Positions 27,601 through 49,409 of a DNA stretch of 64,000 nucleotides are shown piece by piece. Within the stretch, counting starts at the first letter, position 1; every line of letters starts with the position of its first letter. The notes below the pieces were generated by a model. The model did not search any database, was not told the origin of the DNA, and saw only the letters and a program-made list of their open reading frames with translations. The position numbers and the translations under genes are program-made. This DNA is from Candidatus Heimdallarchaeum endolithica (GTDB lineage Archaea > Asgardarchaeota > Heimdallarchaeia > Heimdallarchaeales > Heimdallarchaeaceae): positions 1,056,001-1,120,000 of the forward strand of contig CP084167.1 in assembly GCA_021513715.1 (NCBI GenBank). The letters are read 5' to 3'.

Positions 27601-27930
27601 CTTTAACTTTTTGTATAAATTAATAAAACTAATTCTCTGTCCAGAAGTAAAACTAGCTTGATTTTCATATAAATTTATAAATTGAGAATAAGGTGATGTA
27701 ACCGTTAATTTCTTATAAAAGCATTTAGCTAAATCCTTAACAGATGAAATTGAAGGACCAAAGAAGAATACTCCATTTTTGATTTTTGAATTTGTTTTAA
27801 TATCTTCTGCTCTTGCATTTACAATATCTTCCAACAATTTTTCAAACAAATAATCCCAAACTTCTTTAGGATAATATTCTTTTATCTCAGAACATAAATC
27901 CCTTTCTCCAACTAGTAGGTCTCTACTCAT
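24655..27930 (-). CDS. Cdc48-like multi-module AAA+ ATPase
   Basis: Walker A GPPGTGKT and GPPGCGKT; Walker B LIFDDID and AVFDEAD; pore loop IMERYVG; SRH CTNHPDKMD; a further degenerate N-terminal module (FFFGPSISSVK). ATG at 27930; ORF track starts at 27939. Confidence 0.9.
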   Translation of the reverse strand: MSRDLLVGERDLCSEIKEYYPKEVWDYLFEKLLEDIVNARAEDIKTNSKIKNGVFFFGPSISSVKDLAKCFYKKLTVTSPYSQFINLYENQASFTSGQRISFINLYKKLKSKPYIIRVDGLERPLAVNQRGGNNLFEQLKERFYSLINELENLSIDNTGSYTIIYCSELYYQDLVRHAGHSRIAKMFNLIYVPPLKKERIKELIQKKFQTHSISSISPDDVEILADLVSKRNVIDSFSIIESELENSPKKRLVFNNIITHIQSIHEFPEQDLQFFHQISVSYNMKFLQNPEPPKPKYTFSEIGGNEKLKYIILDSYKKAMSDINRRGYKVLLYGPPGTGKTVMAVRLCDALGLNVIHIERPSDIMERYVGSSAANLATYFERARLAANMENSKGCALIFDDIDTISHPPSSSHEDGGTVAREEVLNTLLSELEGETHSNNKLLIVFCTNHPDKMDRRIFQRIDRSIFVGLPYNIWEYQHIIEVILRNELGIREEVIANLDLEKFAQEAMRKKIAPRNIRAALFNINFEPYNNNMLNKKDELNNLIIEQIKNERSIFQELRGSNVKMEIYERYRTGVFHKARYREEEFINFFDNKENREKYSLFKYTNVDSMGKSERENFFKGFLEERKESTVITKATFKDIKGLDEPKVILYCHGQSMLTLSEQQQFMDHIPIIILFGPPGCGKTMLISALKNFYKKELNVLVFNLKEIITPEDMHEAIDTILSSSPCFAVFDEADIFLSDSHYIQNKQIINVLKERTSSLSRLEEHVRLIFLTNLIPSQMNKAIKSRSSDIIKILPPETKDVYATIWKSNIEKHLKNKFYSILYDEDIKNNLDDVCLHLGQMSCGRQTPRDIKNSLEALLRQAIVLYRENKNSGANINYKISKFDIIHVIPHSSSNEFKESLERYIYSDSRTNFVEENPFYKDIIKNKKIAEKLGLYGQFPTSSSSTQKRERTIASRIPPKVTENIISKRDSTLDVRGLDKLMKNEFVEVVVANHNNRSASISVHPKLIELYELEDEMFYQDNQPLLFVDIIIVKGEMEKQINDVRMEVRKGSFNKEDIIDISPIIKKDGIKHRIDVGSILKIRIKKGKG

Positions 27931-28135
27931 ATATAGCACCGATATTTATGTAAAAGAACTATATATATTCTCTTAAAAACTTTATTGTAGAAAAAATAGC
28001 GAGAGCTCTTTATGTTTATCTTGTGCTTAAATTGAAAAAACTACCAGATAAAAATTTTAGTATTTTTAGTTAACAAAATTTTTAATTAATGAAAGTTATC
28101 TACTAAAACACCTAAATGGTTTATAAAAAATAGGG

Positions 28136-31100: not shown

Positions 31101-34100
31101 GCTATCCTATTACTATTTATATCCAAGATACGCAAAATCATGAAAATTATTATTACTACACAATGACTATAAATAATTACCCAAATATTAACTTAAGCCC
31201 TACTACAACAATAAACGGTAGTCATGTAGCTGGTTTAATGGATATAAACGGTACAATTGACACGCAAAGATCATTAAAAAACACAACAATATACATAGAT
31301 AATATAGTTCAAGCGACATATACTGGAACATCTTTTAGTTTTGAGTGGAACACACTTTTGTTTGAAGATAATAAGCATATCATTACAATAAAATCCTATG
31401 ATTCAGAAGGCTATAATAATCAAACAACACTTGTATATGTTGTTGATAACTTACCTTCTATATGGATTACTAGTCCAGCAAACAATAGCATGATAACAAA
31501 TACTGAAAAGATAAATATTACAGTAGATTCATTTCCAATTTTAGATTCCATAAAAGTATATCTCAATTCTACCTTAATTGAAACAATTTCATCAAATAGT
31601 AGTGGAATTACATACTTTTCTGTTTCATTAGATTCAACTCTATTTGCAGATGGTTATTATATTTTAAAAGTTGAGGCAATTACTCAAATCACTACTACAA
31701 ATAGCACAAAAATACAAATTAATATCGACAACTTTCCTAATATAAATATTATTTCACCAGTAGAAAATGAAGAAGTTTATGACTTGTATCCAATAAACGT
31801 TCAAATTTCAGGCCCTCCCATCAAAAATAGTACTATAGCAATTGATGGTAAAATTGTAAGCATATTTTATCAAACAACAGGTTATATTTATTATTGGAAC
31901 ACTTCATTATACGCCGATGGTTATCACGAAATAATAGTTACTACGATTTCAGAATTTGATTTTATTAGCAGTGAAAATGTAAATGTATTTTCAAATAATG
32001 TTCCTAATCTAATTCTTTCTTCTTCATTTCCAGAAGAGGAACAAGTCTATGCGGGAACGATTGAACTTGAATGTGATGCATATTCTACCACTAGTATTAC
32101 TAATTTTAGCTTGTACATTGATAATATACTAGTTAATTCGACAAATACTAATAGATTAACTTATTCTTGGAATACTTTATCTTATTCTAACGAATATCAC
32201 ACTATTTATTACCATATAGTTAACTCAAAAAGTTTTAGTAACCAAACTTCAAAAAGAATACGCATTGCCAATAATCCCCAATTCCACACTTACTCACCCT
32301 CAAACAATACAATGGTTTATGGTACTATTTTCCTAAATACCACAATAACTTGTGGTAATGCTTATTCTTACTCACAAATTTATATTGATACAAATTTACT
32401 TACTACAACTTCAAATAGTTCTATTTATTATCCTATTAACACATGGAACTATGATGATGGTTTCCATAAGATAAAAATTATTGCATATGATTCACTAGAC
32501 AACTCCAATTCTACTTTATTCCAGCTTACTTTTTCAAATGTGGCTAATATCACAACTAGTCTTACTGATGAAGAAATAATTTATAATGATTATTTACTCA
32601 ACATTTCGATTGATAGTAATCCAGAGATATCATCATTAAAGGTTTACCTAAATGAAACAGTCATCTATTCTGGAACTTCAAAATCAATTTCATTACCCAT
32701 TGATACATTTTCATGGTCTGAGGGCAAATATAATTTTACTGTACTTGTTTTAAATGAATTTGGACAAAATTTCACAGATAAAAGATGGATATACATTAAG
32801 AATTATCCTGAACTGCAATCTATTAATATTGTGTCAAACCAGAAATTTAATGAGAATTATACTATTACTTTTGACGTATTTTCTGCACAAGGAATACAAG
32901 TGTCTGAACTTTATATCAATGGTTCATTAAAATATTCAAATTCAGGAACTTCTAATTCCTTTATTTGGCAAACGAGAAATTATGAGGATGGGATATATAA
33001 TATTACGATTTGCATCAAAGATATAGAAAATGATCAAACAATATATCAGTATATAGTAAAAGTAATTAATCACCCCCACATTATTTTCAATCAAAAACTT
33101 CCCCTAAACAATTCTATTGTTACAGAAACAATCGTTTTTGATATTTCAATCGATGCATATCCCTATATTGATCAAGCTGCTATTTATATAAATGGAACAA
33201 TAAGAACTCTAACTAATTCAGACCAATTTATATATAAATGGAATACAAAATTAGTTCAAGATAATTTATATAATGTAACAATATTTGTTGAAGATGCCAG
33301 CGGAGATAGAAAAATTTTAACTTACTTTTACACTGTAGATAACATTCCACAATTAGATTGTGAAGTTCCTCCAGAAGGATTATTGCTCGAACCTGTTTAT
33401 CTAAATGTAACCGGGAGTGGAGGAAATAATATTTCCAAAATTGAAGTTTATGAAAATGATATTTTAGTTGGCGTTGCATATTCCAACGAATATAGCTACC
33501 TATTTAATACCCTAGTCAAAAATGATGGCTTTTACACAATTTTGTTCAAGATCATTGATGAAATGGGGAATACTAACTCTTCTGCTTTTTCTTACTTAGT
33601 TGATAATTTAGCTTCTATCAACATTTCACCTGATATTACAACAGAAATTTTTGGAAATCTTACTTTATCAATAACAATCGAGTCACAGAGAGAATTTAAT
33701 TCAGAGATTTATATTAATGGAACAGTCATTTATAGTAATAATTCTTCAAGTTATGAATATCTATGGGAAACTTTTGATTATGAGGATGGTTTATATAATA
33801 TTACAGTTTTAGTAATTGACATTAAATCATTTAAAAATTCTACAACACAATTCTACAGAGTCAATAACAATCCGGATATACAATTTATTAATATTACAAA
33901 TAACGCTGTAGTATTTGACACAATTACAATCGAAGTAAATACCTCATCGTACTATAGTATTACCTCAAATAAACTATTAATAAACAGTAGTGAAGTATTT
34001 CAAACAAATAATAGCAACTTCGAATATGACTTAAACACTCTTGATTATGAAGAGGGTGTTATTATAGTACAAGTTATTTCAACGAACAACCAATCTAGAG

Positions 34101-37100
34101 TTTCTTCCTCAGAAATAACATTAATAATTGATAACTTTCCTAAGATTACACTCACACCATCAAATAATAGTATAGTTTATGCAGATACAATTATCACAAG
34201 TGAAATATCCTCTTATGTTTCAATAATAAACCAATCATTATATATTGATGGTAATTTAATTACCACTTCTACGACCACAATTTTATCATATAACTGGAAT
34301 ACTACTTTATATGCTGACGGGTTGAATAATATAACTATTGTCGCTTTCAATTCAAATGAAAGAAAAACAACATTAACTTACTTTTATTCAGTAAACAATG
34401 TACCAGATTTAACAGTTAATGTAATAACCACTCCAGCCAACAATTCTATTATTTTTGATACAATAACACTAGCTTTTGAAATTACAACCTTTAATGAATT
34501 AGATAATGTTCAGATAATAATTAACGATACAGTTGTTCTATATCAAGCATCAACAACAATTCAATATAACTGGAATACAATAGACTATCTCGACGGTACC
34601 TATAATGTTACTTTTTATGTAATAAACACTTTTGGTTTTTGGAATAAAACAACATTGGTATATCAAGTTTTCAATATTCCTGAAGTAACATATACAATCA
34701 ATGACAATAATGGTTTCTTAGTAAACGACATTAACATGCAGGTCAATAGTTCTGTAGGCCCGGGAATAAATAATATAAAAATAAAGATAAATGGGAGTTT
34801 ATTATATCAGAACTTTTCAGATAGCATAAACTTTACTTATGACAGCCATAACTTTAAAGATGGAAATTACTTAATTACAATAGACGTAGAATCCAACTCG
34901 CAAATAACAACCTCTGTATTTAATTACTACACTATTAAGAATTTACCAGAAGGATCATTTGTTACACCAACCCCAGCTAATCATTCAACAGTATTTGGAA
35001 CTATAAATACAATTAATGTTACTTCTAGTTCGCTAACAGGAATAGATAATATTACACTTCTAATTAATTCAATTCAAAGAAATATATCTTTTAGTGATAA
35101 TTTAGAATATAACTGGGATACAACTTTAGAAAGTGATGGGTTATATAACATTACTGTGGTAATTACTGACCAAGAGGGAGATAATTTTGTTCTACATATT
35201 GAAATAGAAATAAAAAATAATCCGTTTACAGCATTAACTAATCTTTATAATATGAGTGTTGTTTTCCATGATGTAAAGTTAGAAATTAGAGGAGAATCAC
35301 TTTCATCATTAAAAAAACATCAGCTGTACATTAACGGTTCACTTGTAAATTCAACAACAAGTTTAAATCTTTCTTACTTATGGAATACAGAAATTTATTC
35401 TGATAATTGCTATAATATAACTATACTGATAGAAAATATTTATGGCTTCCAAAACTCCGTTACATATTATTTGTTTGTTAGAAATGTTCCACAAATAACT
35501 CTACATTCACCTCTCAACTATCAAACGATAACTGGTGAAAATAACATTACAATAACTATTTCTATGCCCTCAGGAAGTAATTTTACTCAACTTTTTTTGA
35601 ATGGTACATTAATATTACAAACTTCGTCAACAGAGATTAACTACTTGTGGGATACCTTACTATATAATGATGGAATTTACAATTTAACAGTCTACTCTGA
35701 AACTATCTACAATTTCAACTCTACAAAACAATATATTTTTACTGTTGACAATATTCCACAGTTGACTATTATAACACCTAGTGAAGGTTCTATTCTTTAT
35801 GGTTCAGTTATCGTAACTGCTGAAGCTACAGGTGGGAACAATATTTCTAAAATAGAATTATATGTTGATGAAGAATTATATGTTTCAGAAAATTCATCCA
35901 GTTTCAATCAAACCATCTCTAGTTGGATTTTTGACGACGGAATGTATCTACTTACATTTCGCGTAATAGATGTCGAAGGAAACTATAATGACTCTGCTAA
36001 AATTTCAGTAACCATCAATAATATTCCAAATATTGATTTTGTATATCCTACACCTCCTGAAAAATCTATAATTTATGGTTATATAGAAATAAACATCTCA
36101 GTAACAGATATTAACAATCCTATCCATAATACAACATTGTTAATTAATGATCAAATAAAAGCTGTTGTTAATGATTCAATATTGTATTACCTTTTCAATA
36201 GTTCAATCTACAATGATGGAGTATGTACAATTAAAGCAATTGTCTATAACAATTATGGCTACATAAATTATACAACACATATATTACAAATAGATAATAT
36301 TCCAAATATTCAAATCGAAGGAATATCGAATAATGAAGAAATTATTGACATAAAGACCATCACAATACAAACAACTAGTGGTTCAAATATTACTAATACC
36401 TCAATCTATATTAATTCTATTCTTCAAGCTTCGAATAATAACAACAATCTTGTTTTTGATTTTAATACACTATTATATTCAGACGGCAATTATTCAATCA
36501 CTGTAACTACAGAAAATGAAGATGGATTTTACAATTCTACAACTTTATTTGTAATCATAAATAATATACCAAATTATAGTTATTCAGGACCTCAATATAA
36601 TGAAAAGATAACAAATTCCAAAGAACTTTATATTTCAGGATATTCTCCTAGAGGAGTAGACTTTATTCTACTGGAGCTAGTATCACAAGAAAACCATTTT
36701 ATTCTAGCCAATTATTCTAGTGATACATTAAGTTATACTCTTAATACTTTACTTTATCCAGATGATAACTATAATCTAACTTTAACTGTAAAAGATAATG
36801 GTGGCTTTTTAAACTCTACAGCAATTCCAATAATTATTGATAATATTCCTCAAATTCATTTAGATCAAGGAATGTTAAATCTCAATAATTCAATAGTCAT
36901 TGATGTTATATCACTAAATTGCACTGCAACAGGTGGAAATGATATTTCTCACATAAAGCTTCAAATCGATGATGAAATATATTTAATATCAAACAATAGC
37001 ACTCTCTCTTACCTTTGGGATACTATTTTAGAAACTGATGGTAATTATAAAATTGAATTAACTGTCACAGATACTTACTCTAACGAAAATAAAACAATAC

Positions 37101-40100
37101 TATATTTAACTATAGATAACTATCCAGACCTATATATTGACTCGAAGCCATCAGAATCATCTCTTATAGGGAATAACAGTTTTATTTATCATGCTACAAC
37201 TCAAAGAACAATAGCATTTATGGAAGTTTGGATCGATAGTCAACTTGTTAAAAATATTTCAGCAAGCTCTGACACTTTTATTTGGGAAACAGAATTATAT
37301 CAAGACAATATTTATTCAATTTACTTTAAAGTGTATGATAGTGCAGGATTTACAAATTACTCAAATATATATATTTATAAAATAACAAATATTCCTGATA
37401 TTAATTTCAGCCATTTTGAAGATCTTTCTAAAGATAGATTAATCGATACAATAAATGCAACAGTAACTATTTCTGAAGGATGGACAATTCAGGAGATTAG
37501 AATATTTATCGACAACGTGTTAAAGGTTTATAGTCAACCAGGAGAGAGAAATCTCATATACTATTGGAATACATTAAATTATTCAGATGGAATCCATGAA
37601 TTTAATGTTACAGTGATTGATGAACAAGATCATTATAATTCCACAGTATTATCTTGTAATATTGATAATTATCCACAAATAGATGACTATTCACCAGAAT
37701 ATGTTTATGTACGAAATTCAGTTGTTTTAACAGCTTCAGGCAGTGGAGGAAGAACTATCGATAATATTACATTACTAATTAACAATTCAATTGTACACGT
37801 CACTAATTCTCCTATATTTTCTTACGTTTGGGAAACAAATGATAGTTATTATTCGAATGGAGTATATGAAATAAAATATCTGATATATGACGTTGAAGGA
37901 TATATGAATACTACAATTATCTATTATATAGTAGATAACGAAGAGCCTATAATAACTATAACCAATTTATGTGATTATCAAGGAGTTACCTCAACATTTG
38001 AATTAATGATTAGATCTCAAGATGAAATTGGAACAAAAACAATGTATTATGAAATATACTTTGGCTTAGAATTATTGCTTCGAGAAGAGTTCATCGGTAA
38101 TGAAACTGTAATTTCTGAATGGACAATAACGGTAAAACTGGAAAACGCAAGCTTAGAAGACGAAATACTTTGGTTACAGGTTACTGTTATTGATTTAAGT
38201 GGTAATCAAAATTCAACCTGTATTTATTTAGTTTATAACGATATTCCAGATATTCAAATTTATAACGTCAATGAAGATGATGTTTTATTTAGTAGCTCTT
38301 ATTATATAAAATTAGGAATTTTTTCTGGAATTTCATCAGCAAACGTTGAAGTCCAATTATACGACATAAATACAGATAATTATACAAAAATAGTAACTTT
38401 TGTAATCGATGATGCTAATGGTCCCCTATATGCAAATGAGAGTTTTAATTTGGATACAAGAGTTTTTGATGATGGCCTTTATTATTTAAGGATTGTCGTT
38501 TTTCCAAGTGGAAATTCAGCTATTGGAATAAAAAGAATAGCAGTGGAAATTGATAATCACCCAAACATCTTAGTAGATAAGAAAGAGAACTCTGAACTCG
38601 CAGGAAACAGCGAATTTAATATCATTATTTCAACAAAAAATCCAGCTAATATCTTTGTTGTAGACTACTTTAAGATTTACATTAACGAAAAGTCATCTGA
38701 CAATTTATTATATAAAGAAGTGAGAAATGATGTATCAAAATCTTATTTTGAGTTTTATTTCTTATTTAATACAACTGCATATAACGATGGAGTTATTACT
38801 TTGATTTTTGAATTCTATGATGCAATTAATGAATATTATAACTTAACGACATTCTCCTGTTATATTCATAATAATCCTGAAATCATTCTACCAAATATTT
38901 TAGAAAATCAACTAATAGGCTTCAATTATTCAATTTACATAGATACCAACTATTATGGAGACTTCCAAAGTGGATCAATTTATATTAATGATAATTTAGT
39001 TAGCTCATTTGATACTTCAAGTTTTATTTGGCTATGGCAAACAGAAAACTATAAAGATGGAAATTATACACTAAAAATTACGGTTTCAACATTAATAAAC
39101 AATACATATTATTTCATCACAGAAAAAGAAGTAAATGTAATAATTCAAAATTATCCATCTTGGACTTTTAGTTCAACTCCACTAAATGGTTCGATAATTT
39201 TTAACACAATAGAGCTTAAATTTACTTTCATTAATGGAACACCAATTAATAATTTTTATATCTATGTTGATAATTTTCCAGCGCTAATTATTAATATGAG
39301 TGCTTATAAGGGTTCAGCAACTATAGAATTTAATACAAAGACTATTAATGATGGATGGCATACTCTTTTACTTTTATTGGAGACTTCCTACAATTACATA
39401 ATAAATAAGACTTTAACTGTGCTTTTTGATAATAAACCAAATATTTACTACGTTAGTGATAATATTAAAGAGAATGGTTTTTACAATAATGAGATCGATA
39501 TATCTTTCAAGGCCAACAGTACAACTAGCGTTTTCAGATTAGGAATAGATGTTGTTGATGATATTACAAATATATCAATTTCAGATTTTCCAATTGAGAT
39601 AAATAATAATGAAACATTCTCAACAATAATTAATACCACCAAGTACACTACAGGAAATTATCAAATACTAATATATGCTATAGATAACGAATATGATATG
39701 ATAATCATTAAGTATAAAGTTACTTTCGATAATGACATCCCTGAAATTTACTCAAATAATGGTCTGTCTTTGTATTCAAATGTTTCTGAAAAAATAGTAT
39801 TTACTTCTAGAACAGCATACATTAGCTTTACAACAGAAGATTTTTCGCCAATAGAAACTATTACAATTTATGCAAATAAAGAACAACAAATTGTTCACAA
39901 AGATTTCAATGACCCAAGAACAGTTAACTTTGGATATTATCATTATATTACTATGGATGGAGAGACTAAAATAATAAAGGTGATTATCACCGATAAAGCG
40001 GGGAATATACGAGAAGCAGAATACAAAATACAGTTTATGCTTAAGCCATTTATAAATGAAGTAAGCTTTGGTGTTGACGTAAATACAACTATAACTAATG

Positions 40101-40513
40101 TTGTTTTCAACATAAACATCTCTATACATGATGATAGAGGACTTTCATCAGTTTATGTTTTATTAATTGGAGAAGAAAGAAATTATACAATAACCACAGA
40201 ATTTGAAAACTTACCCCTAAACAAAACAGACATCAAAGAAACCATATTGTTTTCAGATACGATTATTAGAAAACTGAATAATAAAAAGTTAAAAGATGGA
40301 AACTATACCTTTGTAATAGAAGTTGTTGACATTGATGGCTACCGCACATCTTATAAGCAACCTCTTTCTATAGAACGTATAAACAGAAAATCGTTTATAA
40401 CCATAATGCTATGGATAGGTTTATCAACACTAGCTATTGGTTTGGCAGGATTTGTAATGTACAAAAAGAACTTCCCTGCAGCCCTATGGGATCGTATTAG
40501 ATATGAGTGGTGA
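28136..40513 (+). CDS. Giant (4125 aa) membrane-anchored surface protein with about 45 tandem Ig-like repeats
   Basis: N-terminal hydrophobic signal; repeating ~85-90 aa unit with WNT..Y.DG.YNITI...D..G......VDN.P; many N-x-S/T sequons; C-terminal TM FITIMLWIGLSTLAIGLAGFVMY followed by KK. Confidence 0.93.
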   Translation: MVNIKREKIFSYLIILLFLLNPFSTVLIKDIENKDTKNNEITDIKPEHINSNIKNISNNPKSENKKTKIKNDYNKSSKIEEKNTKKLSVELKKYSNGSYVSGTIELYFTCSGVPKAQSMTLLINNQFKMWVLGSIGIYIWNTKTIDDGKYYLKLIVHTENKDYAFFWYIYVSNNITEEKVSNENVTTTKSDIKSAFLFIPPISSNTMQYISSNIDITIKNPANDSTVGGDVTIDANASSSVGTISEMRIYIDEELKKSVFDIDSITYLWSSYSNPDGNYNITIYAKDSDGGESTKTIFVQTNNHPDISFISPSNNETIIKGIYLIQGEAVCEDTISWFALRVDSLTVYNSSSSSISYNLDTVSYFDGRHTLELICKTIHSIETNLKYIVIIDNTKPVLFTDYPTNNTDIYGTITLTTSAFDVHFSKIQIIINGTTVYSNGNGSFTWKTINYEDAYYNVTTIASDTVGNSQKEYYLYKIDNVPNFHVKPEKIVIEGSQNFNITINCANELKFISLYFNGLLYYQTTSYNFSYLLDSLDFLDGNLTVLVKAIDTENVEYYYYTWVIVDNDPEITIDNDINNTYVHGILSLNCFSSSNHVTNISAILDNTEIAFNDSNYLSISIDTKTLATTNHNLTIVINGLYGQNSTYINFYVNNNPTIDSFIPLTGTKVFNEVSIEASITFENNPGIIIFYINGTVVYSISGSSSATYTWNTESYTDGTYNISVYCKDEFGFSNFTSNLIYLENTPEISFLDCTPANSTEIHATVFVAGYVTSIFDIDYVQLWFNNSLINSTNSKNFNFSINTLNYKDGQKNLTIIVKTLNSTTNYVYMQYYINNVPEIFLDSFNDGSKVGGNFLLKLHVESFFSDLILSLYINNELREQISNYQITYNWNTEELSDGNANITIYAECTGGNNISIAIVEIDNIPDIEIISPVSFNEKFIDNVLFDFIGSGYFNISNVSLFFDNNLIHSVTDTQYFTYNLDTTKYADNSYPITIYIQDTQNHENYYYYTMTINNYPNINLSPTTTINGSHVAGLMDINGTIDTQRSLKNTTIYIDNIVQATYTGTSFSFEWNTLLFEDNKHIITIKSYDSEGYNNQTTLVYVVDNLPSIWITSPANNSMITNTEKINITVDSFPILDSIKVYLNSTLIETISSNSSGITYFSVSLDSTLFADGYYILKVEAITQITTTNSTKIQINIDNFPNINIISPVENEEVYDLYPINVQISGPPIKNSTIAIDGKIVSIFYQTTGYIYYWNTSLYADGYHEIIVTTISEFDFISSENVNVFSNNVPNLILSSSFPEEEQVYAGTIELECDAYSTTSITNFSLYIDNILVNSTNTNRLTYSWNTLSYSNEYHTIYYHIVNSKSFSNQTSKRIRIANNPQFHTYSPSNNTMVYGTIFLNTTITCGNAYSYSQIYIDTNLLTTTSNSSIYYPINTWNYDDGFHKIKIIAYDSLDNSNSTLFQLTFSNVANITTSLTDEEIIYNDYLLNISIDSNPEISSLKVYLNETVIYSGTSKSISLPIDTFSWSEGKYNFTVLVLNEFGQNFTDKRWIYIKNYPELQSINIVSNQKFNENYTITFDVFSAQGIQVSELYINGSLKYSNSGTSNSFIWQTRNYEDGIYNITICIKDIENDQTIYQYIVKVINHPHIIFNQKLPLNNSIVTETIVFDISIDAYPYIDQAAIYINGTIRTLTNSDQFIYKWNTKLVQDNLYNVTIFVEDASGDRKILTYFYTVDNIPQLDCEVPPEGLLLEPVYLNVTGSGGNNISKIEVYENDILVGVAYSNEYSYLFNTLVKNDGFYTILFKIIDEMGNTNSSAFSYLVDNLASINISPDITTEIFGNLTLSITIESQREFNSEIYINGTVIYSNNSSSYEYLWETFDYEDGLYNITVLVIDIKSFKNSTTQFYRVNNNPDIQFINITNNAVVFDTITIEVNTSSYYSITSNKLLINSSEVFQTNNSNFEYDLNTLDYEEGVIIVQVISTNNQSRVSSSEITLIIDNFPKITLTPSNNSIVYADTIITSEISSYVSIINQSLYIDGNLITTSTTTILSYNWNTTLYADGLNNITIVAFNSNERKTTLTYFYSVNNVPDLTVNVITTPANNSIIFDTITLAFEITTFNELDNVQIIINDTVVLYQASTTIQYNWNTIDYLDGTYNVTFYVINTFGFWNKTTLVYQVFNIPEVTYTINDNNGFLVNDINMQVNSSVGPGINNIKIKINGSLLYQNFSDSINFTYDSHNFKDGNYLITIDVESNSQITTSVFNYYTIKNLPEGSFVTPTPANHSTVFGTINTINVTSSSLTGIDNITLLINSIQRNISFSDNLEYNWDTTLESDGLYNITVVITDQEGDNFVLHIEIEIKNNPFTALTNLYNMSVVFHDVKLEIRGESLSSLKKHQLYINGSLVNSTTSLNLSYLWNTEIYSDNCYNITILIENIYGFQNSVTYYLFVRNVPQITLHSPLNYQTITGENNITITISMPSGSNFTQLFLNGTLILQTSSTEINYLWDTLLYNDGIYNLTVYSETIYNFNSTKQYIFTVDNIPQLTIITPSEGSILYGSVIVTAEATGGNNISKIELYVDEELYVSENSSSFNQTISSWIFDDGMYLLTFRVIDVEGNYNDSAKISVTINNIPNIDFVYPTPPEKSIIYGYIEINISVTDINNPIHNTTLLINDQIKAVVNDSILYYLFNSSIYNDGVCTIKAIVYNNYGYINYTTHILQIDNIPNIQIEGISNNEEIIDIKTITIQTTSGSNITNTSIYINSILQASNNNNNLVFDFNTLLYSDGNYSITVTTENEDGFYNSTTLFVIINNIPNYSYSGPQYNEKITNSKELYISGYSPRGVDFILLELVSQENHFILANYSSDTLSYTLNTLLYPDDNYNLTLTVKDNGGFLNSTAIPIIIDNIPQIHLDQGMLNLNNSIVIDVISLNCTATGGNDISHIKLQIDDEIYLISNNSTLSYLWDTILETDGNYKIELTVTDTYSNENKTILYLTIDNYPDLYIDSKPSESSLIGNNSFIYHATTQRTIAFMEVWIDSQLVKNISASSDTFIWETELYQDNIYSIYFKVYDSAGFTNYSNIYIYKITNIPDINFSHFEDLSKDRLIDTINATVTISEGWTIQEIRIFIDNVLKVYSQPGERNLIYYWNTLNYSDGIHEFNVTVIDEQDHYNSTVLSCNIDNYPQIDDYSPEYVYVRNSVVLTASGSGGRTIDNITLLINNSIVHVTNSPIFSYVWETNDSYYSNGVYEIKYLIYDVEGYMNTTIIYYIVDNEEPIITITNLCDYQGVTSTFELMIRSQDEIGTKTMYYEIYFGLELLLREEFIGNETVISEWTITVKLENASLEDEILWLQVTVIDLSGNQNSTCIYLVYNDIPDIQIYNVNEDDVLFSSSYYIKLGIFSGISSANVEVQLYDINTDNYTKIVTFVIDDANGPLYANESFNLDTRVFDDGLYYLRIVVFPSGNSAIGIKRIAVEIDNHPNILVDKKENSELAGNSEFNIIISTKNPANIFVVDYFKIYINEKSSDNLLYKEVRNDVSKSYFEFYFLFNTTAYNDGVITLIFEFYDAINEYYNLTTFSCYIHNNPEIILPNILENQLIGFNYSIYIDTNYYGDFQSGSIYINDNLVSSFDTSSFIWLWQTENYKDGNYTLKITVSTLINNTYYFITEKEVNVIIQNYPSWTFSSTPLNGSIIFNTIELKFTFINGTPINNFYIYVDNFPALIINMSAYKGSATIEFNTKTINDGWHTLLLLLETSYNYIINKTLTVLFDNKPNIYYVSDNIKENGFYNNEIDISFKANSTTSVFRLGIDVVDDITNISISDFPIEINNNETFSTIINTTKYTTGNYQILIYAIDNEYDMIIIKYKVTFDNDIPEIYSNNGLSLYSNVSEKIVFTSRTAYISFTTEDFSPIETITIYANKEQQIVHKDFNDPRTVNFGYYHYITMDGETKIIKVIITDKAGNIREAEYKIQFMLKPFINEVSFGVDVNTTITNVVFNINISIHDDRGLSSVYVLLIGEERNYTITTEFENLPLNKTDIKETILFSDTIIRKLNNKKLKDGNYTFVIEVVDIDGYRTSYKQPLSIERINRKSFITIMLWIGLSTLAIGLAGFVMYKKNFPAALWDRIRYEW

Positions 40514-41481
40514 TGATGAGTATCACAAATAGATTTATTCAAAAGAACACAATGTTTAACTTAAAAAGATTATTTTATATAATCTTAACTTTAGTTTATT
40601 TAATAGTTTATTTAGGTGTAGAGTTCGTTGCTCTATTTAAAAAATATGATTATACACATATTAAGCACGCAGTTATTTATATACTGTCATTTCTAAAATA
40701 CGTTGATACGTTTTTATACATTATCTTGTTAATCAGTCAAATACCTTTTGTTCTATTAGTGTTAAATGCTTTAGTTTTACTTTTTCTAAGCTATATCATA
40801 CCGTTAATCCCTGTTGAAAAAAGAATAAAGCAAATTCTTGGAGGTTATATGTTAAAAATTAAACATGAAAAATCTTTGATTTTTCAAATGTCTATTTTTA
40901 GCGGTTTATTTTCTTGTTTTTTTAACATTTTCTTTATTTTATTACGACAATACAACATTTTACTTTTATCAGCGACCTATGGAAATAGACTGTTTCTAAT
41001 TTTAACTCTTTTCTATATTCCACAATTCATCACGTCAATCTTAATGTTACATTTCTATTCTTCGAGCTTTTTAGATAACTTCTTGCTAAGTATAAAACGA
41101 GATATGAATTATGTAGCATATACACTAATAAATATGAAGACTGATACACAACAAAGAGAATTATTTATTCCAGTAAAACAAATTGAAGATTATATCAAAA
41201 TGGACAATCGTAATTTAAAAAAGGAACAAGAAATCATTCAAAGGATAGAGAATTGTTTTCTTGACATATTTTCTGGATCTGGTTTCACTGATTATATTTC
41301 TAAGTCAAGAGAGAGAGGAGAGACAGATTTGCCTGACATCGGAGTAACATTTGAAAAAGAAACAATAAATAATAATGAATATTTTGTGTTAAAAATAGGA
41401 ATCAGTGAAGAAAGAGTTGAGTTAATAAAAAGAATACAGGCTGAAATAATAAAATATGTATTAATAACAAAGATATACTAA
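40507..41481 (+). CDS. Membrane protein (about 4-5 TM) with soluble C-terminal domain, coupled to the giant gene
   Basis: Start overlaps the giant gene's stop; hydrophobic N-terminal half, charged C-terminal half. Confidence 0.75.
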   Translation: MVMMSITNRFIQKNTMFNLKRLFYIILTLVYLIVYLGVEFVALFKKYDYTHIKHAVIYILSFLKYVDTFLYIILLISQIPFVLLVLNALVLLFLSYIIPLIPVEKRIKQILGGYMLKIKHEKSLIFQMSIFSGLFSCFFNIFFILLRQYNILLLSATYGNRLFLILTLFYIPQFITSILMLHFYSSSFLDNFLLSIKRDMNYVAYTLINMKTDTQQRELFIPVKQIEDYIKMDNRNLKKEQEIIQRIENCFLDIFSGSGFTDYISKSRERGETDLPDIGVTFEKETINNNEYFVLKIGISEERVELIKRIQAEIIKYVLITKIY

Positions 41482-41777: not shown

Positions 41778-43865
41778 TTAAGCTATTACCTCTAATCCTT
41801 CTTCAGTTAAATAATTAATTACTTTTTCTCTGAAATTATTGTAATCTATATTCAGCTCATTTATATCTTTACCTTGATCTACTTTATCACAGAAATCTTT
41901 GAAATAAAACCCCCAAATTTCGAAAGGTGCAGATTTTTTGAAAGTATTGTAAATATTATGAAATGTCTGTAAAAACTCTTTTTCTGTTGCATTAAGGTCG
42001 TTAAAGAATCCACCAAAAAATTCATGGTTTAGCCTGTCAATACACTCTTCAAATTCATTGCCCTCTACCTTAAGACAGTTTGGTAAATTATGCACACTAT
42101 CGATAACATCTTTTATTTCTTTAAAGAACTCCGCACCTTTAATCTTAGAACCTAATCTCTTGAATTCTTCATAAATTTTGATTAAAGATTTAACAAATAA
42201 CCAACAAATTTCCAATATAAAGGGGTTTACTATTCCAATGAACACCATATTTGACTTAATATTTGGTGAATAATTTTGTGTCAAAGATTCTGAAATATAA
42301 TTATTGCCTAAACCCAAACCATATTTCTGATATAATTTTTGTTTATTTTTGTTTCCATCGTCAAGTAGTTCATAAAACTGTTTAGCTAATTTTTGTTCTG
42401 CAGTAGATGGTGCAATAATCAATCTTTTTGAATAGTTTTGTGATATAAACTCAAATTTTTCTTTAATTTTTTTCTTCACTTCTTTGCTTTTAGTATCAGA
42501 AAATTTAATCCAAATTACATCCGCAAATGTTTGTTTTGAAAGAGCAATATCCATCCATTGTAATAAATTTGTATTTTTCATATCTTTAGAATAAAAAACT
42601 GCTGGTACAATGATATAATTCCCTTTTAGAGGTCCATAATCCTTATATGTTTTTTCATCAAGCTCGTTCGGTCTCCTAAATATGTCAGTCGAGCTTATTT
42701 TAATATAATCGTTGGCCACTCGTCCTTCAAGAATATCGTTGACATCAAACATCCCAATATTCATTATTGGAGCGAGAACTAACTTTGTTATTGCTTCATT
42801 TATTTGAAAAAGTATATTATCTTCGCACTGAAAAGGATATAATATGTCATAGTTGAATGGAATAATTGTTTCTTTGATTTTTTTGTTTGTTACAAAGTAA
42901 TTCATTAAAGTCAAGGGATGTCCTATTTCACAAAACAAAACTCTTTGAAGACCAATTAAACATGAGACTTCGTCCACATAAGCGCCTTCTCCGAGAATTG
43001 AGAAAGCAATAGCTTTCTGTGGGCTCGCTTCTTTATAATGTTGTATTATTTTTAGTGATTCAAAAAATTTTTTACCTTTATTATTATAGTTTTTGTCATA
43101 TTTTAAAATAAATGGGTCATGGAGATAAGTAATTAATTTTCCTGTTAAACCAGAACCAGTTCCTCTTCCTAGTCCGTGAATATAAAAGAATATCGTTGCT
43201 TTTTTTTGTATGTCTGTTGTTTCGTCTCCATGCGAATATCTAAATAAATCAGGTGGCCAAAGACGATTAGAAATATCTTGCTCAAAAAGTTCTGTTTCGC
43301 TATAATTTTCAGGATTGAAAAAGTCTTCTGCAACTTTACGACCACCATACCAAAATCCTCCTGCACCCAATCTGTCTACAACTGTTGGATCTATACTAAT
43401 TCCTACAAAATTATACAAAAATTCTTCTTTAATTCTAGTTTTATTTAATAAATCACTTTGCTTTCTAATTCTTCGTGGAAAATCTTCTGTTGGAGGTTCT
43501 GTTTTAACATTCTGTCGCCACCAATTATACGCGTAGACCAAATATTTATTTTCTAAACGATTACTGTTTTCTGCATCATGAACAGCCCCTTCCAAGGAAG
43601 TATTTATAAACCAAGCACCAATAACCTTTGAATTCTTTTGAAATTCAATCTGGTAATTTGATCTAAGTTTAGCTTCATGATTTAGATAAGTTACCAATAC
43701 ATTGCATCCACAATCACCTACACCAAAAAGCATAGTTGCAGAATTTATATTTGTTTTATGTATTATCCAAGAATTTTTAATTCCATTTTCATTATTACTA
43801 TTTTTTTTGAAAATTTTTTTAGTTATCTTTTTAATTGCATCTAGATATGTTTTAAGTTTAACCAT
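41778..43865 (-). CDS. Divergent tubulin/FtsZ superfamily GTPase
   Basis: T1 FGVGDCGCNV, T2 FINTS, T3 GAGGFWYGG, T4 signature HGLGRGTGSG and T7-like FDVNDI, in the correct order. Confidence 0.85.
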   Translation of the reverse strand: MVKLKTYLDAIKKITKKIFKKNSNNENGIKNSWIIHKTNINSATMLFGVGDCGCNVLVTYLNHEAKLRSNYQIEFQKNSKVIGAWFINTSLEGAVHDAENSNRLENKYLVYAYNWWRQNVKTEPPTEDFPRRIRKQSDLLNKTRIKEEFLYNFVGISIDPTVVDRLGAGGFWYGGRKVAEDFFNPENYSETELFEQDISNRLWPPDLFRYSHGDETTDIQKKATIFFYIHGLGRGTGSGLTGKLITYLHDPFILKYDKNYNNKGKKFFESLKIIQHYKEASPQKAIAFSILGEGAYVDEVSCLIGLQRVLFCEIGHPLTLMNYFVTNKKIKETIIPFNYDILYPFQCEDNILFQINEAITKLVLAPIMNIGMFDVNDILEGRVANDYIKISSTDIFRRPNELDEKTYKDYGPLKGNYIIVPAVFYSKDMKNTNLLQWMDIALSKQTFADVIWIKFSDTKSKEVKKKIKEKFEFISQNYSKRLIIAPSTAEQKLAKQFYELLDDGNKNKQKLYQKYGLGLGNNYISESLTQNYSPNIKSNMVFIGIVNPFILEICWLFVKSLIKIYEEFKRLGSKIKGAEFFKEIKDVIDSVHNLPNCLKVEGNEFEECIDRLNHEFFGGFFNDLNATEKEFLQTFHNIYNTFKKSAPFEIWGFYFKDFCDKVDQGKDINELNIDYNNFREKVINYLTEEGLEVIA

Positions 43866-43872
43866 GTTTGTT

Positions 43873-45894
43873 TTACCTCCATATTAAGCGACTACTTCTA
43901 TTCGGTTTTTCCATTTCTTCAATAACAGTCTCCAAAAACTTGTTAATATTCTGATAATTTCCAATCGCAGAAACTGGATCCTTTAGCATAAGCAATTCTT
44001 GATTTACATTGTTAAGATATTTCTTTAAGAAACCAATAAAAATATAATTCAAGCTTCCTTTGTTTCTATCAATAAATTCCTCTATTTTATTTCGTAAATC
44101 AAGATATTTTTGTTTTTCTTGTGATAAACTAGTACTATAATCAGAATCGGTAATCTGAATTGAAATAAGCAAATCTTTTAAAATTGTTTGAATGTTCTGA
44201 GATAAGTCTTTTTTAGATGAAAAGTTTTCATTTGCATTAGCCAATTTAGAAATCGTTTGATCAACAATTTTTTCTAAATTCGATCCAGTACTACTTTTTC
44301 GTTCTTTACTTATTTCCTCAGATATTTTTGTTAGATATTTATCAAATTGTTCTTCTTGGGCTTTTAAGCTACGTAATAACTCAGTTTTTTCAGCTATAAA
44401 CAATTTATAATTAGACTTAATAATATATAAAACAACAGCGATAATTAAAGTATCACTAAATTCATGTTCATGCTTGTATTTATTTGCAAAAATATTACTA
44501 AAAACTGATAAAAATGAATCTTCCTTTTTAACTGGTAAAAAATTAAAAAACATATCTAAATAGTCTTGAAATTCCGTTCTTAACGCTTCATAGGATTCAA
44601 TTTGATATTTATCTAATTGAGATTCAAAATTTTCCAATATTCCTTCAACTAGAGCGATAATATCATAGAGTATATTTTTTTCATATTCAATACTCTTTAT
44701 TGCTTCTAATGCTTTAGTTTCATTCTGTGATATTATTTTTCGAATACCAATTTGTGATAATTGATTGAAATCAACTGCTTTTTTGATATCTTCACCAAAA
44801 CAGTTCTGAATAGTTTTGCAAAGTTTTTCAATATTTTCAAGCTCACTCTGGTTTATCTCAAATTCAAATAAGTGTCCAATTGCTTTTTCTGGTGTGAAAT
44901 ATGTTAACTCCTGAAATGATTCTAAAATATCCTCACTGATAATTATTTTTTCTTTCAGAAACCTATTTTTAATTGAAGAAAGATTTTTTTCTAAAATTTC
45001 AATTCGTTTTCCTAATGAGCTAGTCTCTAGTTTCTCATCTATAACCATATCTTTAACGATGTCAGAAAGTAATTTAGAGTAGTTTATCAATAACTCAAGA
45101 AAGGAGATAATTAACTTTTGAGAACAAAAAATAAAAGGATAAAAATCACCTGTATTACTTTTGTCCGCTATTGAACGTAATTTATCATGATCATCCAAAA
45201 TGTAACTTGAACCGTTGCTAATTTCTCGAAAGGTCGCAATAATACTAGATAGATATCTAGAGATATCTTTCATTACATTATGTATTTTATTCATTTCTCT
45301 ATTTATTTCTTTTAAGTTTTTTGAACTAACAATTTCTTGATATTCACTATCTGATGAAATATCAGAACGAGAAATTTCCTCTTGATCTTCATCATACTCA
45401 TCGGATTCATCCCTAACAGTTTCACTAGTGAGTCTAAAAGAATCAGAAACCATAGTATCGGATACTGAGGTAGCATCATCAGAAGTATTATGACCTACTA
45501 AAATATTCGTTATTTCTGTTTTTAGTGTTTGAAGGAAATTTATATCTTGTTTCTTTTGCTCTTCGATTTTTAAAATTAGCTTTTCTGACAACTCAAATAA
45601 TTTTTCACAAAGTTTCTTAGGATTTTTTGCCATTTTTTCATCCTTTAAATTCAGTTTATCATCAATATTATTCTTAAGTAATTCAATAATTCTCATTGAA
45701 GCATCAGATATGGTATTTCCATATAAGTGTTCAATGAAACTATCTTCAACTGAAATATTGTCTAAGTTATAATCACTAATTAATCTTGAAAACAAACGTT
45801 TTAAAAGCTCTAGATCCTGCTTTTTTGTTAAGAGAAACTTGTACCCAAAAATTGTTAATTTCAATTTTTCTTTATTATATTTGACAATTTTCAT
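43873..45894 (-). CDS. Long alpha-helical/coiled-coil protein
   Basis: 673 aa, E/K/L/I-rich heptads with an acidic linker; GGAGG RBS links it to the tubulin-like gene. Confidence 0.8.
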   Translation of the reverse strand: MKIVKYNKEKLKLTIFGYKFLLTKKQDLELLKRLFSRLISDYNLDNISVEDSFIEHLYGNTISDASMRIIELLKNNIDDKLNLKDEKMAKNPKKLCEKLFELSEKLILKIEEQKKQDINFLQTLKTEITNILVGHNTSDDATSVSDTMVSDSFRLTSETVRDESDEYDEDQEEISRSDISSDSEYQEIVSSKNLKEINREMNKIHNVMKDISRYLSSIIATFREISNGSSYILDDHDKLRSIADKSNTGDFYPFIFCSQKLIISFLELLINYSKLLSDIVKDMVIDEKLETSSLGKRIEILEKNLSSIKNRFLKEKIIISEDILESFQELTYFTPEKAIGHLFEFEINQSELENIEKLCKTIQNCFGEDIKKAVDFNQLSQIGIRKIISQNETKALEAIKSIEYEKNILYDIIALVEGILENFESQLDKYQIESYEALRTEFQDYLDMFFNFLPVKKEDSFLSVFSNIFANKYKHEHEFSDTLIIAVVLYIIKSNYKLFIAEKTELLRSLKAQEEQFDKYLTKISEEISKERKSSTGSNLEKIVDQTISKLANANENFSSKKDLSQNIQTILKDLLISIQITDSDYSTSLSQEKQKYLDLRNKIEEFIDRNKGSLNYIFIGFLKKYLNNVNQELLMLKDPVSAIGNYQNINKFLETVIEEMEKPNRSSRLIWR

Positions 45895-46523
45895 TAAATC
45901 ACATCCAATATTTTTTTGAGGTTTTTATCAAATTTAGATAAATATCTAGAAACTTTTTTTAATTCTTCTTTCAGTTCTTTGTTTTTCTTATTCAGTTCTT
46001 TGTTTTTCTCACTCAGTTCTTCGTTTATCTTATTCAGCTCTTCGTTTTTCTTATTCAGTTTCTTTATCTTATTCAGCTCTTCATTTTTCTCACTCAGTTC
46101 TTCGTTTATCTTATTCAGCTCTTCGTTTTTCTCAGTCAGTTCTTCGCTTATCTTATTCAGTTCTTTGTTTTTCTCACTCAGTTCTTCGTTTATCTTATTC
46201 AGCTCTTCGTTTTTCTCACTCAGTTCTTTGATCATTTTTACTTTTTTATACTTTAACTCATTTACCTGTTGAGATAACTCAGAACGCGCAGACTCTGACC
46301 CATTTTCTTCTTGAGTTAACTCAGAACGCGCAGACTCTGACCCATTTTCTTCTTGAGTTAACTCAGAACGCGCAGACTCTAACTCACTTTCTTCTTGAGT
46401 TAACTCAGAATTCGCAGACTCTAACTCACTTTCTTCTTGAGTTAACTCAGAATTCGCAGACTCTAACTCACTTTCTTCTCGAGATAATTCAGAATTATTG
46501 TTGGAAATTTTATTCACCACCAA
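45894..46523 (-). CDS. Coiled-coil protein built from 14-aa tandem repeats
   Basis: ELTQEESELESANS-type and ELSEKNEELNKINE-type repeats; TAATG stop/start coupling to the next gene. Confidence 0.75.
   Translation of the reverse strand: MVVNKISNNNSELSREESELESANSELTQEESELESANSELTQEESELESARSELTQEENGSESARSELTQEENGSESARSELSQQVNELKYKKVKMIKELSEKNEELNKINEELSEKNKELNKISEELTEKNEELNKINEELSEKNEELNKIKKLNKKNEELNKINEELSEKNKELNKKNKELKEELKKVSRYLSKFDKNLKKILDVI
45960..46230 (-). repeat. 21/42-bp intragenic tandem repeat array
   Basis: Recurring CTCAGTTCTTCGTTTATCTTA / TTCAGCTCTTCGTTTTTCTCA units on the + strand. Confidence 0.9.
46270..46496 (-). repeat. 42-bp intragenic tandem repeat, about 5.3 copies
   Basis: TAACTCAGAACGCGCAGACTCTGACCCATTTTCTTCTTGAGT-like units at 46275, 46317, 46359, 46401 and 46443, partial copy at 46485. 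Confidence 0.95.
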
Positions 46524-48425: not shown

Positions 48426-49409
48426 TTGATAATAATGATTATTGCTAGTGGGCCTTTTCAAGAATTGGATGAAATGAGAATACAATGTAATATATGTCCC
48501 CACAACTGTGTACTTAAAAATGGAGAAACAGGTTTATGTAAAGAAAAAATAAACATTGAAAATTCGTTATATACGTTAAATTTTCGAGAGATTACAATAG
48601 CTGAACCTAGACCTATAGAACAAACACCTTTTTTTGAGTTTTATCAAGAAACAACAGCTCTCAATTTAGGTGGATATTCATGTAATTTTTGGTGCCCTTT
48701 TTGTTTAAATTATGAAATCAGCTACAACACTTCTTCTGATTTACGTAGCAAAACTTTTTCTAATAACGATATTTTGAAACTTGTTAAAGAAACAAATAGT
48801 AAGGGAGTTGTTTTTACTTTTAACGAACCGGCAATTATGCATGAAACAGTAATAGATATTTTTTCGTTTATAAAAAGAGTTGATTCATCTATTTACACAG
48901 CAATTCACTCAAATGGTTTTATGAGTAAAAAAGTAATTGATTTAATTATAAAATATACTGATGGATTTGTTTTTGACATTAAAGGAGATGATAGTTTTTA
49001 TCTACAAATGAGCGCAACATTTGACAGTATATGGAACAATATTAGAAAGATTAACAACAAAAAAAGACATTTAGAACTTGTAATTCCATTGTTTACAGAA
49101 TTTATGAACGATAACACAATAACAAAGATAATGAATAAATTAATTAATGACAATATAAACTGCCCAATCATAATCTTAAAAGGAAGACCAATAACAAAAT
49201 ACAATAACTTTACCCAAGTTAGTCAAAAAAAGGCAGAGGATATCGTAAAGTTATTTAAAGAAAATGGTTTTCATGAAAGTTATCTAATGGGATTTCCTGG
49301 TTCTAAATATGAATCTTCTTATTGTAAAAAATGTGGAAAAATCACTTTATACAGGTACGATGCTGTACCTATGTTCAGAGAAGATATTGATTATTGCAAA
49401 TGTAAATGA
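48426..49409 (+). CDS. Radical SAM enzyme, AmmeMemoRadiSam RS-like
   Basis: N-terminal CNICPHNC...GLC, radical SAM motif CNFWCPFC, TFNEP, C-terminal CKKCG. Confidence 0.9.
   Translation: MIIMIIASGPFQELDEMRIQCNICPHNCVLKNGETGLCKEKINIENSLYTLNFREITIAEPRPIEQTPFFEFYQETTALNLGGYSCNFWCPFCLNYEISYNTSSDLRSKTFSNNDILKLVKETNSKGVVFTFNEPAIMHETVIDIFSFIKRVDSSIYTAIHSNGFMSKKVIDLIIKYTDGFVFDIKGDDSFYLQMSATFDSIWNNIRKINNKKRHLELVIPLFTEFMNDNTITKIMNKLINDNINCPIIILKGRPITKYNNFTQVSQKKAEDIVKLFKENGFHESYLMGFPGSKYESSYCKKCGKITLYRYDAVPMFREDIDYCKCK

Follow-up and report, generated by a model that had tools for sequence, protein, structure and literature searches.

Analysing a 64,000-nucleotide stretch of the Candidatus Heimdallarchaeum endolithica genome (GenBank contig CP084167.1, positions 1,056,001 to 1,120,000; hereafter the window, whose positions serve as coordinates), we found a gene for a 695-aa tubulin-like protein, P0001, that we read as the most divergent protein in a small, so far undescribed family within the tubulin/FtsZ superfamily. 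Its place in the superfamily is almost certain, and it very probably belongs to the new family and to the gene module of that family. This adds a tubulin-superfamily branch that standard searches miss, with a conserved set of partners that makes it testable.

The gene is one intact open reading frame (ORF), as the initial annotation had described, and the three signature motifs reported there (GVGDCGCN, GAGGFWYGG and IHGLGRGTGSG) were all located, in the order T1-T3-T4, with the GTG(S/T)G core and an R for the first G of the GGG run (Table 1). The glycines of these loops are invariant between P0001 and its relatives. The T3 counterparts are GAGKFW/SW/WW in the family and GAGNNF/GAANNW in Atub, those of S2/T2 are YNTS/FNTS in the family and INTD in FtsZ, and an acidic T1 residue is also found in other Asgard paralogues (GIGECGSN, AVGDAAC). 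T5 to T7 were assigned from the multiple alignment alone: Asn327, in the probable S6/T6 segment, is invariant across the family alignment, and FDVND of the probable T7 loop aligns with FtsZ NxDxxD, which would keep both acidic positions, in a half of the protein without significant pairwise match. The long insertions noticed initially are real: one of ~75 aa separates T2 from T3, and another of ~27 aa (aa ~253-279) follows helix H4. The helical C-terminal extension of more than 100 aa amounts to 147 mostly helical residues after the last strand-like segment (aa 540-548); the corresponding stretch measures ~55-60 residues in relatives, so that ~90 aa are specific to P0001.

Conventional searches do not recover this family from P0001. 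Only P0001 itself was returned from a 5.8-billion-protein index and, with phmmer, from 1.84 billion proteins, and no homologue was found among PDB sequences, in the genomes of 61 relatives, or in the viral and metagenome peptide scans and plasmids searched. The Pfam Tubulin model matches the T4 region only (aa 222-250, E=1.6e-4), below its cut-off, and a motif scan of GTDB genomes gave 8 matches, all by chance. A DNA scan with a degenerate T4-loop pattern gave 13 metagenome or viral matches, of which one, L109, is real. It encodes P0003 (515 aa), which carries GVGGTGCN, GAGKFWSSG and IHGLGRGTGSG and passes the Pfam Tubulin cut-off (44.7 bits), and with P0003 five further proteins (509-542 aa) were retrieved, giving a six-member family. 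P0003 was chosen by its T4 motif; the likeness to P0001 spans aa 45-248 (BLAST E=9e-9; hhalign 96.4%, E=1.3e-9). The profile of the six homologues scores 19.9 bits on P0001, against at most 5.1 for 200 shuffles, and ranks it top in the host proteome (4,317 ORFs), above both FtsZ-type genes. When aa 30-400 were compared with 400 Asgard genomes, one weak real match was obtained, the 616-aa P0002 of genome G294, and no relative was found in the 399 others; nor was the gene found in 82 other genomes of the host's class.

Next we examined the predicted fold, as the initial annotation had suggested, with a fold other than that of tubulin as the outcome that would speak against it. AlphaFold on the single sequence gave a low-confidence model (predicted local distance difference test, pLDDT, 34.5). 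An AF2 model of aa 40-460 was built from an eight-row family alignment holding no known FtsZ or tubulin rows, and for this model, also of low confidence, the top nine of 48,161 chains were all of the tubulin superfamily (CetZ, FtsZ, BtubA, OdinTubulin, alpha/beta-tubulin and AtubB2). CetZ matched with Z=10.2 (root-mean-square deviation 4.6, 151 aligned), FtsZ and BtubA came within 1 of it, and the first unrelated GTPase had Z 7.7. All 50 Foldseek rows were likewise superfamily members, with Bacillus TubZ in the top rows (E=0.004). The ESM Atlas model of P0003 (predicted template-modelling score, pTM, 0.75) matches beta-tubulin with a template-modelling (TM) score of 0.66 by query and 0.76 by target. 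A further Atlas model comparison gave a TM score of 0.59 in the CetZ row. The superfamily membership first claimed is thus supported by the fold.

We then placed P0001 in a GTPase-domain phylogeny with FtsZ, CetZ, TubZ, PhuZ, Odin and one FtsZl1 (58 sequences, 216 columns, LG+C20+F+G4, the 27-aa P0001 insert excluded), which covers part of the reference set initially proposed: eukaryotic tubulins, artubulin, Halo.Tub and FtsZl2 lie outside it, its CetZs are haloarchaeal plasmid CetZs only, and the labels Atub, Odin and Asg.Tub on its rows are inferred, with an assumed Asg.Tub reference set. In the maximum-likelihood (ML) tree P0001 groups with the new family only, as sister to the six relatives (support 90/84) and then to P0002 (83/66), and lies outside the clades of FtsZ (100/99), Atub/Odin tubulins (100/97), CetZ, TubZ, PhuZ and two groups of Asgard paralogues. 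P0001 sits at the end of a very long branch (1.97), and the tree backbone is poorly resolved; the FtsZl1 sits on a long branch without a resolved position. Among eight profiles that of its own family scores best on P0001, and the seven reference families reach at most 12.3 bits (Asg.Tub 12.3, Atub/Odin 8.1, TubZ 5.3, CetZ 4.7, PhuZ -1.2).

An approximately unbiased (AU) test rejected joining P0001 to the FtsZ of the host family (p=0.006), and with the FtsZ clade excluding it the protein is not an FtsZ, as had been proposed; the T3 motif GAGxxPxxG, FtsZ_C, a qualifying TIGR00065 score and nesting in the FtsZ clade are all lacking. The same holds for the marks sought of true tubulins (GQxGNQ, VDLE, Tubulin_C, tandem A/B genes), of CetZ (CetZ_C, PF21011, without a match at E<=1; P0001 is outside the clade), of FtsZl1 (PF13809; vWA, GTPase and kinase partners among the neighbours) and of TubZ/PhuZ (TubR with a centromere, jumbo-phage context, TubZ_C domains at the locus). 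Under the assumed Asg.Tub reference set, P0001 is also not nested in the Asgard CetZ-like clade. The branch thus remains uncharacterised in the sense first intended, P0001 being inside none of the described families that could be compared, and sequence comparison suggests a new family whose root position the tree leaves unsettled, a placement as tubulin sister being neither supported nor rejected.

Accordingly, we weighed the idea that P0001 is a deep sister or fast offshoot of the true tubulins (Atub/Odin/eukaryotic), with a bearing on microtubule origins, and regard it as very unlikely. The His before T4, the GSG, the T3 aromatic and the helical C-terminus after S10 speak for it, as do the best PDB matches of the family profile (BtubA, AtubA and OdinTubulin, E 3e-4 to 3e-3) and the AU tests, which left a position next to the tubulins unrejected both for P0001 alone (p=0.29) and for the whole family (p=0.24). 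Beside P0002, moreover, lies a tandem gene whose 569-aa product reaches 59 bits on the Atub/Odin profile. However, the tubulin branch of the ML tree (length 1.14) forms without P0001, GQ(A/G)GNQ and VDLE are missing from it, the Atub/Odin profile scores far below that of its own family, and its gene is single and island-borne, not one of a tandem A/B pair. The initial view that Trp, His and GSG are closer to tubulin/CetZ than to FtsZ holds for tubulin, to which the His, the GSG and the T3 aromatic are alike, and fails for CetZ, which has neither the His nor the Trp. The host is indeed an Asgard archaeon, the proviso under which relevance to tubulin origins had been claimed, but that relevance is weak given a species-specific island, near-absence from Asgard genomes and a position outside the Atub/Odin clade; what is left of it is the sister position left standing by the AU tests. 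Any close relationship with true tubulins would in any case concern ancestry, not function.

The Gly-to-Arg change in T4 had been singled out as a deviation from the glycine signature. The Arg (codon AGA, 43164-43166) is invariant in 6/6 homologues, 7/7 with P0001, and so is not a sequencing error. P0002 has Lys at this position (VHGLGKGTGCG), and the FtsZ of 8/8 Heimdallarchaeaceae genomes checked reads GLGKGTGTG, a Gly-to-Lys change (host L001:1003-2184; L178-L182, L185 and L186), while FtsZs of the neighbouring families retain GGG. The change is therefore real but was overstated as a special deviation: with Arg fixed in the family and Lys in the host-family FtsZ it is a family marker, not decay, and on sequence grounds it is no sign of special tubulin kinship. 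As the rejected grouping indicates, the two basic-residue changes look independent, and conservation of GLGKGTGTG in a presumably working FtsZ makes a basic residue compatible with such an FtsZ. It follows that motif-based surveys, which do not expect a basic residue in GGGTG(S/T)G, undercount the superfamily. That P0001 could be a decaying or nucleotide-dead copy without polymer function, for instance of the host FtsZ, is highly improbable: its long branch, its many insertions, its being a singleton among ~15 billion proteins and the basic T4 residue shared with the host FtsZ would suit such a copy, but the 695-codon frame is intact within an operon, the T1/T3/T4 glycines are kept, and grouping with the host-family FtsZ was rejected.

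We next examined the genes around the relatives, conserved partners that the initial annotation had not noticed. In 4/4 contigs read (L109, L122, L123 and L125), the tubulin-like gene has a large AAA ATPase gene on one side and a coiled-coil gene on the other, and the order ATPase-tubulin-coiled coil is also found on the contig of P0004; L125 and the P0004 contig were judged by called genes, and L109 and L125 display the core of the module up to the ends of their contigs. In L122 and L123 the full order is a conserved gene of ~240 aa that we call X (235-249 aa), directly upstream of the ATPase (1029-1089 aa), the tubulin-like gene, a coiled-coil gene (278-301 aa) and a convergent coiled-coil gene (430-505 aa). 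L122 lies within a tRNA-Ser-integrated element with a XerD-type integrase, beside DUF4145, Hypoth_Ymh and radical SAM genes, and a SAMP-like neighbour suggests an archaeal host; L123 neighbours include WD40/CARDB and Band_7 genes. In L115 of G294, P0002 follows a second tubulin-like gene, with coiled-coil genes and a radical SAM gene at the flanks, and no X was found. This second gene (L115:8408-10117, G294 contig C65) encodes the 569-aa protein, whose tail is acidic and whose branch is very long; it scores below 19 bits on all profiles other than Atub/Odin, and is possibly a divergent true-tubulin relative or a heterodimer partner. A search for X in 399 other Asgard genomes gave a single match, which is Cdc6-like and spurious, and neither the sister species nor G294 (81% complete) yielded the ~1050-aa ATPase. 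X resembled DUF2997 by eye, a likeness that Pfam did not bear out. We found no description of this X-ATPase-tubulin-coiled-coil set in the literature, subscription journals lying outside the search, and it looks like an undescribed gene module.

Parts of the module are recognisable in the window. The P0001 gene closes a tightly packed run of three, after a 209-aa and a 673-aa gene, and 3.3 kb from it lies an X homologue that, of all host proteins, matches the X family best (E=6e-4 over nearly its full length; hhalign 86%, E=5e-6, with shuffles <1%). X and P0001 are each the top match among the 4,317 host ORFs, and the chance of their lying within 5 kb is ~0.3%. The 1094-aa ATPase of the window is the sole host protein that aligns to the ATPase profile of the relatives from the N-region onwards; like theirs it falls outside the CDC48/PAN/Vps4 clade (99/99), and by sequence it is a probable orthologue of them. 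The radical SAM gene recalls L115, a weak link since the host has three further radical SAM paralogues.

These genes lie in a variable island of a one-contig genome of 3,326,783 bp (congener 3,081,793 bp); circular genomes of 3.32 Mbp for Ca. Heimdallarchaeum endolithica and 3.08 Mbp for H. aukensis have been described, without mention of tubulin or FtsZ (PMC8813620). The island flanks are 90-97% identical to the sister species, three remnant genes inside are 70-79% identical, and the sub-block 22032-49409 has 27.9% GC, within the lowest 2% of the genome's 27-kb windows. No integrase, tRNA site, terminal repeat or replicase was seen in the island, so that it could stem from a gain here or a loss there; the lack of the gene in 82 other genomes of the class favours a gain by the host over a loss in the sister species. 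An assignment of the island as an aloposon was dropped, there being only one giant gene and no tRNA site or ParA gene seen.

Table 1. Features of P0001 and its locus, in window positions
Feature	Position	Strand	Remark
P0001, divergent tubulin-superfamily protein, 695 aa	41778-43865	minus	one intact ORF
P0001 T1 loop GVGDCGCN, aa 48-55	43701-43724	minus	
P0001 S2/T2 segment FINTS, aa 86-90	43596-43610	minus	by alignment with relatives
P0001 T3 loop GAGGFWYGG, aa 167-175	43341-43367	minus	
P0001 T4 signature loop IHGLGRGTGSG, aa 229-239	43149-43181	minus	Arg234 replaces Gly
P0001 probable S6/T6 segment FVTNKK	42879-42896	minus	by alignment
P0001 probable T7 loop GMFDVND (Asp374, Asp377)	42735-42755	minus	multiple alignment only
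P0001 helical C-terminal region, aa 549-695	41781-42221	minus	low-confidence model and alignment
Variable island	18057-60074		~5 kb in sister species instead
673-aa helical/coiled-coil protein	43873-45894	minus	7 nt upstream of P0001 gene, same operon by spacing
209-aa coiled-coil protein, first operon gene	45894-46523	minus	1-nt overlap with 673-aa gene
Gene X homologue, 238 aa	47168-47884	plus	divergent to operon
AmmeMemoRadiSam-like radical SAM gene	48426-49409	plus	homologue adjoins tubulin-like pair in L115
1094-aa ATPase, two AAA domains after ~290-aa N-region	24655-27939	minus	size and layout like the 1029-1089-aa ATPases of relatives
862-aa transglutaminase-domain and long coiled-coil protein	22032-24620	minus	directly downstream of 1094-aa ATPase
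4125-aa membrane-anchored protein, bacterial Ig repeats	28136-40513	plus	between ATPase and P0001 genes
324-aa membrane protein, ~five transmembrane segments	40507-41481	plus	convergent with P0001 gene

As the explanation that best fits these data we tentatively favour, at slightly under an even chance, a horizontally moving accessory archaeal module of tubulin, AAA ATPase and coiled-coil proteins that acts as a membrane or surface scaffold. By analogy with known systems, a role in membrane shaping or as a surface scaffold is itself a plausible suggestion that we hold somewhat more doubtfully. Under this hypothesis, and judging from tubulin/FtsZ biochemistry, P0001 would bind GTP through T1-T4, with a loop backbone that tolerates Arg/Lys, and would polymerise head to tail, the two T7 Asp driving hydrolysis. 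From the gene context, the coiled-coil partners may hold the polymer at the membrane or bundle it there, and the CDC48/Vps4-like ~1050-aa ATPase may remodel or recycle it, as Vps4 does ESCRT-III. The job would be that of a local membrane-shaping or protein-sorting scaffold for surface proteins of the island, such as the 4125-aa adhesin, an island neighbour that is a possible client of the module. The host keeps a canonical FtsZ, and also a 379-aa paralogue found across its family, so the role of P0001 would not be cell division. Hints of a membrane role come from the Band_7 and WD40/CARDB genes at L123 and from the giant Ig-repeat and transmembrane proteins in the window, and precedents are the Halo_adaptin ESCRT loci with their CetZ-like gene (PMC10936438) and FtsZl1 (PMC2875224); the artubulin gene, too, adjoins Snf7 (PMC9871819).

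Several observations weigh against this interpretation. The family-alignment model, with its alternating strands and helices, reaches a pLDDT of 39 and a pTM of 0.43, and none of its 50 Foldseek rows falls at E <0.001. The C-terminal half of P0001 including T7 has no significant family match in pairwise profile tests, and in the six relatives Asn replaces the second acidic residue of T7, so that GTP hydrolysis may not be a constant of the family. In the window the module is rearranged, with the ATPase 14 kb from the P0001 gene, the orthology of the ATPase is weak (second AAA grouping 62/83; N-region E=0.04), and the coiled-coil partners have no detectable homology to the coiled-coil genes of the relatives. 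Finally, no MIT, Snf7 or PspA Pfam match was found among the neighbour genes, where diverged forms could be missed.

We also considered a role of the module in defence or conflict, with the tubulin-like protein as a GTP-gated polymer or sensor and a TRIP13/IetA-like ATPase resetting its state, and judge this unlikely. The module is patchy, fast-evolving and island-borne, L122 lies in its tRNA-Ser-integrated element beside DUF4145 and Hypoth_Ymh genes, which are common in defence islands, and the ATPases match IetA and TRIP13 profiles. These matches are, however, confined to the generic AAA domain, and CdvC and CDC48 profiles do equally well or better for the window ATPase; PADLOC has no match for the tubulin-like protein or X, and the loci have no nuclease, toxin or transmembrane effector in common. 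That P0001 is a TubZ/PhuZ-type motor for segregating or positioning mobile-element DNA is quite improbable. The integrase-bearing element around L122, the Foldseek rows for Bacillus TubZ and the viral and TubZ-like clusters among the Atlas feature matches would agree with a motor, and a C-terminal extension is typical of TubZ, yet no small TubR-like DNA-binding gene or iteron array adjoins the P0001 gene, the island has no integrase, replicase or terminal repeat, the TubZ and PhuZ profiles score low, no relative occurs in the viral contigs or plasmids searched, and the tree separates P0001 from both.

Comparison with described systems gives the same picture of partial likeness. P0001 shares with AtubA/B/C, OdinTubulin and BtubA/B (PMC13394414) the fold, the His before T4, GTGSG, a GAGxxW-like T3, helices after S10 and the Heimdallarchaeia host; it differs in its clade, the lack of GQxGNQ/VDLE, the T4 Arg, its 695 aa with large inserts and its single island gene with an ATPase. 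CetZ is the best structural match and shares GTGSG and an acidic T7, whereas its profile score on P0001 is low, P0001 has no CetZ_C, and CetZ lacks the His and Trp and forms a separate clade. The Asg.Tub and Halo.Tub CetZ-like groups (PMC9871819) are, like P0001, archaeal and patchy, with uncharacterised coiled-coil genes at their flanks; together with non-canonical archaeal tubulin-like proteins that have coiled-coil neighbours, they make up an already known category. The Asgard paralogues of 440-470 aa, probably Asg.Tub, fall with P0001 in a region of the tree that has little support (91/92, long branches) and likewise have an acidic T1, but form their own 99/99 clade with GGGTGCGG and have neither large ATPase nor X in the two loci read. 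These GGGTGCGG paralogues follow a 900-1140-aa coiled-coil gene (L190:9420-15178, L191:6473-10615), and L190 also has small GTPase genes close by.

The Halo_adaptin ESCRT system (PMC10936438) resembles the P0001 module in pairing a tubulin-like gene with a MIT-less AAA ATPase and with Ig-domain, WD40 and membrane proteins; the P0001 module differs by an ATPase of ~1050 aa with two AAA domains and by having no recognised PspA/ESCRT-III-like or winged-helix gene. FtsZl1 and FtsZl2 (PMC2875224) are likewise highly diverged, with inserts between T1 and T4, a helical C-terminus, a place accessory to FtsZ and predicted membrane remodelling, while P0001 has ~700 instead of ~1000 aa, no Tubulin_2 Pfam match and no vWA, P-loop GTPase, kinase or OmpA partners; FtsZl2 is a proteobacterial family with a ~300-aa alpha/beta C-region and no partners. 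With TubZ/PhuZ, P0001 shares a location on mobile DNA and a C-terminal extension, and differs in lacking TubR or a centromere, in profile scores and in clade.

Taken together, P0001 is probably part of an accessory cell-scaffold module, not a step towards eukaryotic microtubules, and for eukaryogenesis it is a caution that a tubulin-looking Asgard gene can be island cargo instead of inheritance. A tubulin-like gene fixed beside a dedicated AAA ATPase is unusual in prokaryotes and lets ATPase remodelling of such polymers be probed. A stronger version, quite improbable in our view, is a hitherto unrecognised archaeal cytoskeletal system of a lineage near the true tubulins, whose polymer is assembled and taken apart by a large AAA ATPase of its own together with the coiled-coil partners, and which also reached Heimdallarchaeia by gene transfer; if true, this near-tubulin, ATPase-remodelled polymer would be an archaeal counterpart of katanin/spastin action in eukaryotes.

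Further observations concern the locus and other tubulin-like proteins. The 673-aa protein has no assigned family and no detectable homologue in related loci, and a promoter scan stayed at chance level. A by-eye link between the C-part of the 862-aa protein and the ~500-aa coiled-coil gene of the module was discarded, non-circular tests being non-significant. The 209-aa coiled coil is built of 21-nt and 42-nt tandem repeats with the heptad phase preserved, and the 4125-aa Ig-repeat gene is single, unlike the paired genes of aloposons. By structure and features, the nearest large ESM Atlas clusters are euryarchaeal, of 572 aa (80 members) and 512 aa (60 members), and could be Halo.Tub, artubulin or the Halo_adaptin CetZ-like group; Pseudomonadota clusters of 604-731 aa may be FtsZl2, as a lead only. 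A 469-aa tubulin-like protein (L154:1063 onward) that is basal in the Atub/Odin clade (100/97) and encoded ~10 kb from the AtubA/B pair of G137, probably Ca. Lokiarchaeum ossiferum, is probably AtubC. The block 50368-59489, also missing from the sister species, holds a subtilase-like gene, genes for several membrane-anchored proteins and a LonB-like gene that has paralogues in other parts of the genome. Ahead of the window, from ~30 to 6.5 kb before its first position (G000:C1 ~1,025,500-1,049,500), lies a cluster of type I and type III CRISPR-Cas genes, recognised by their N-termini.

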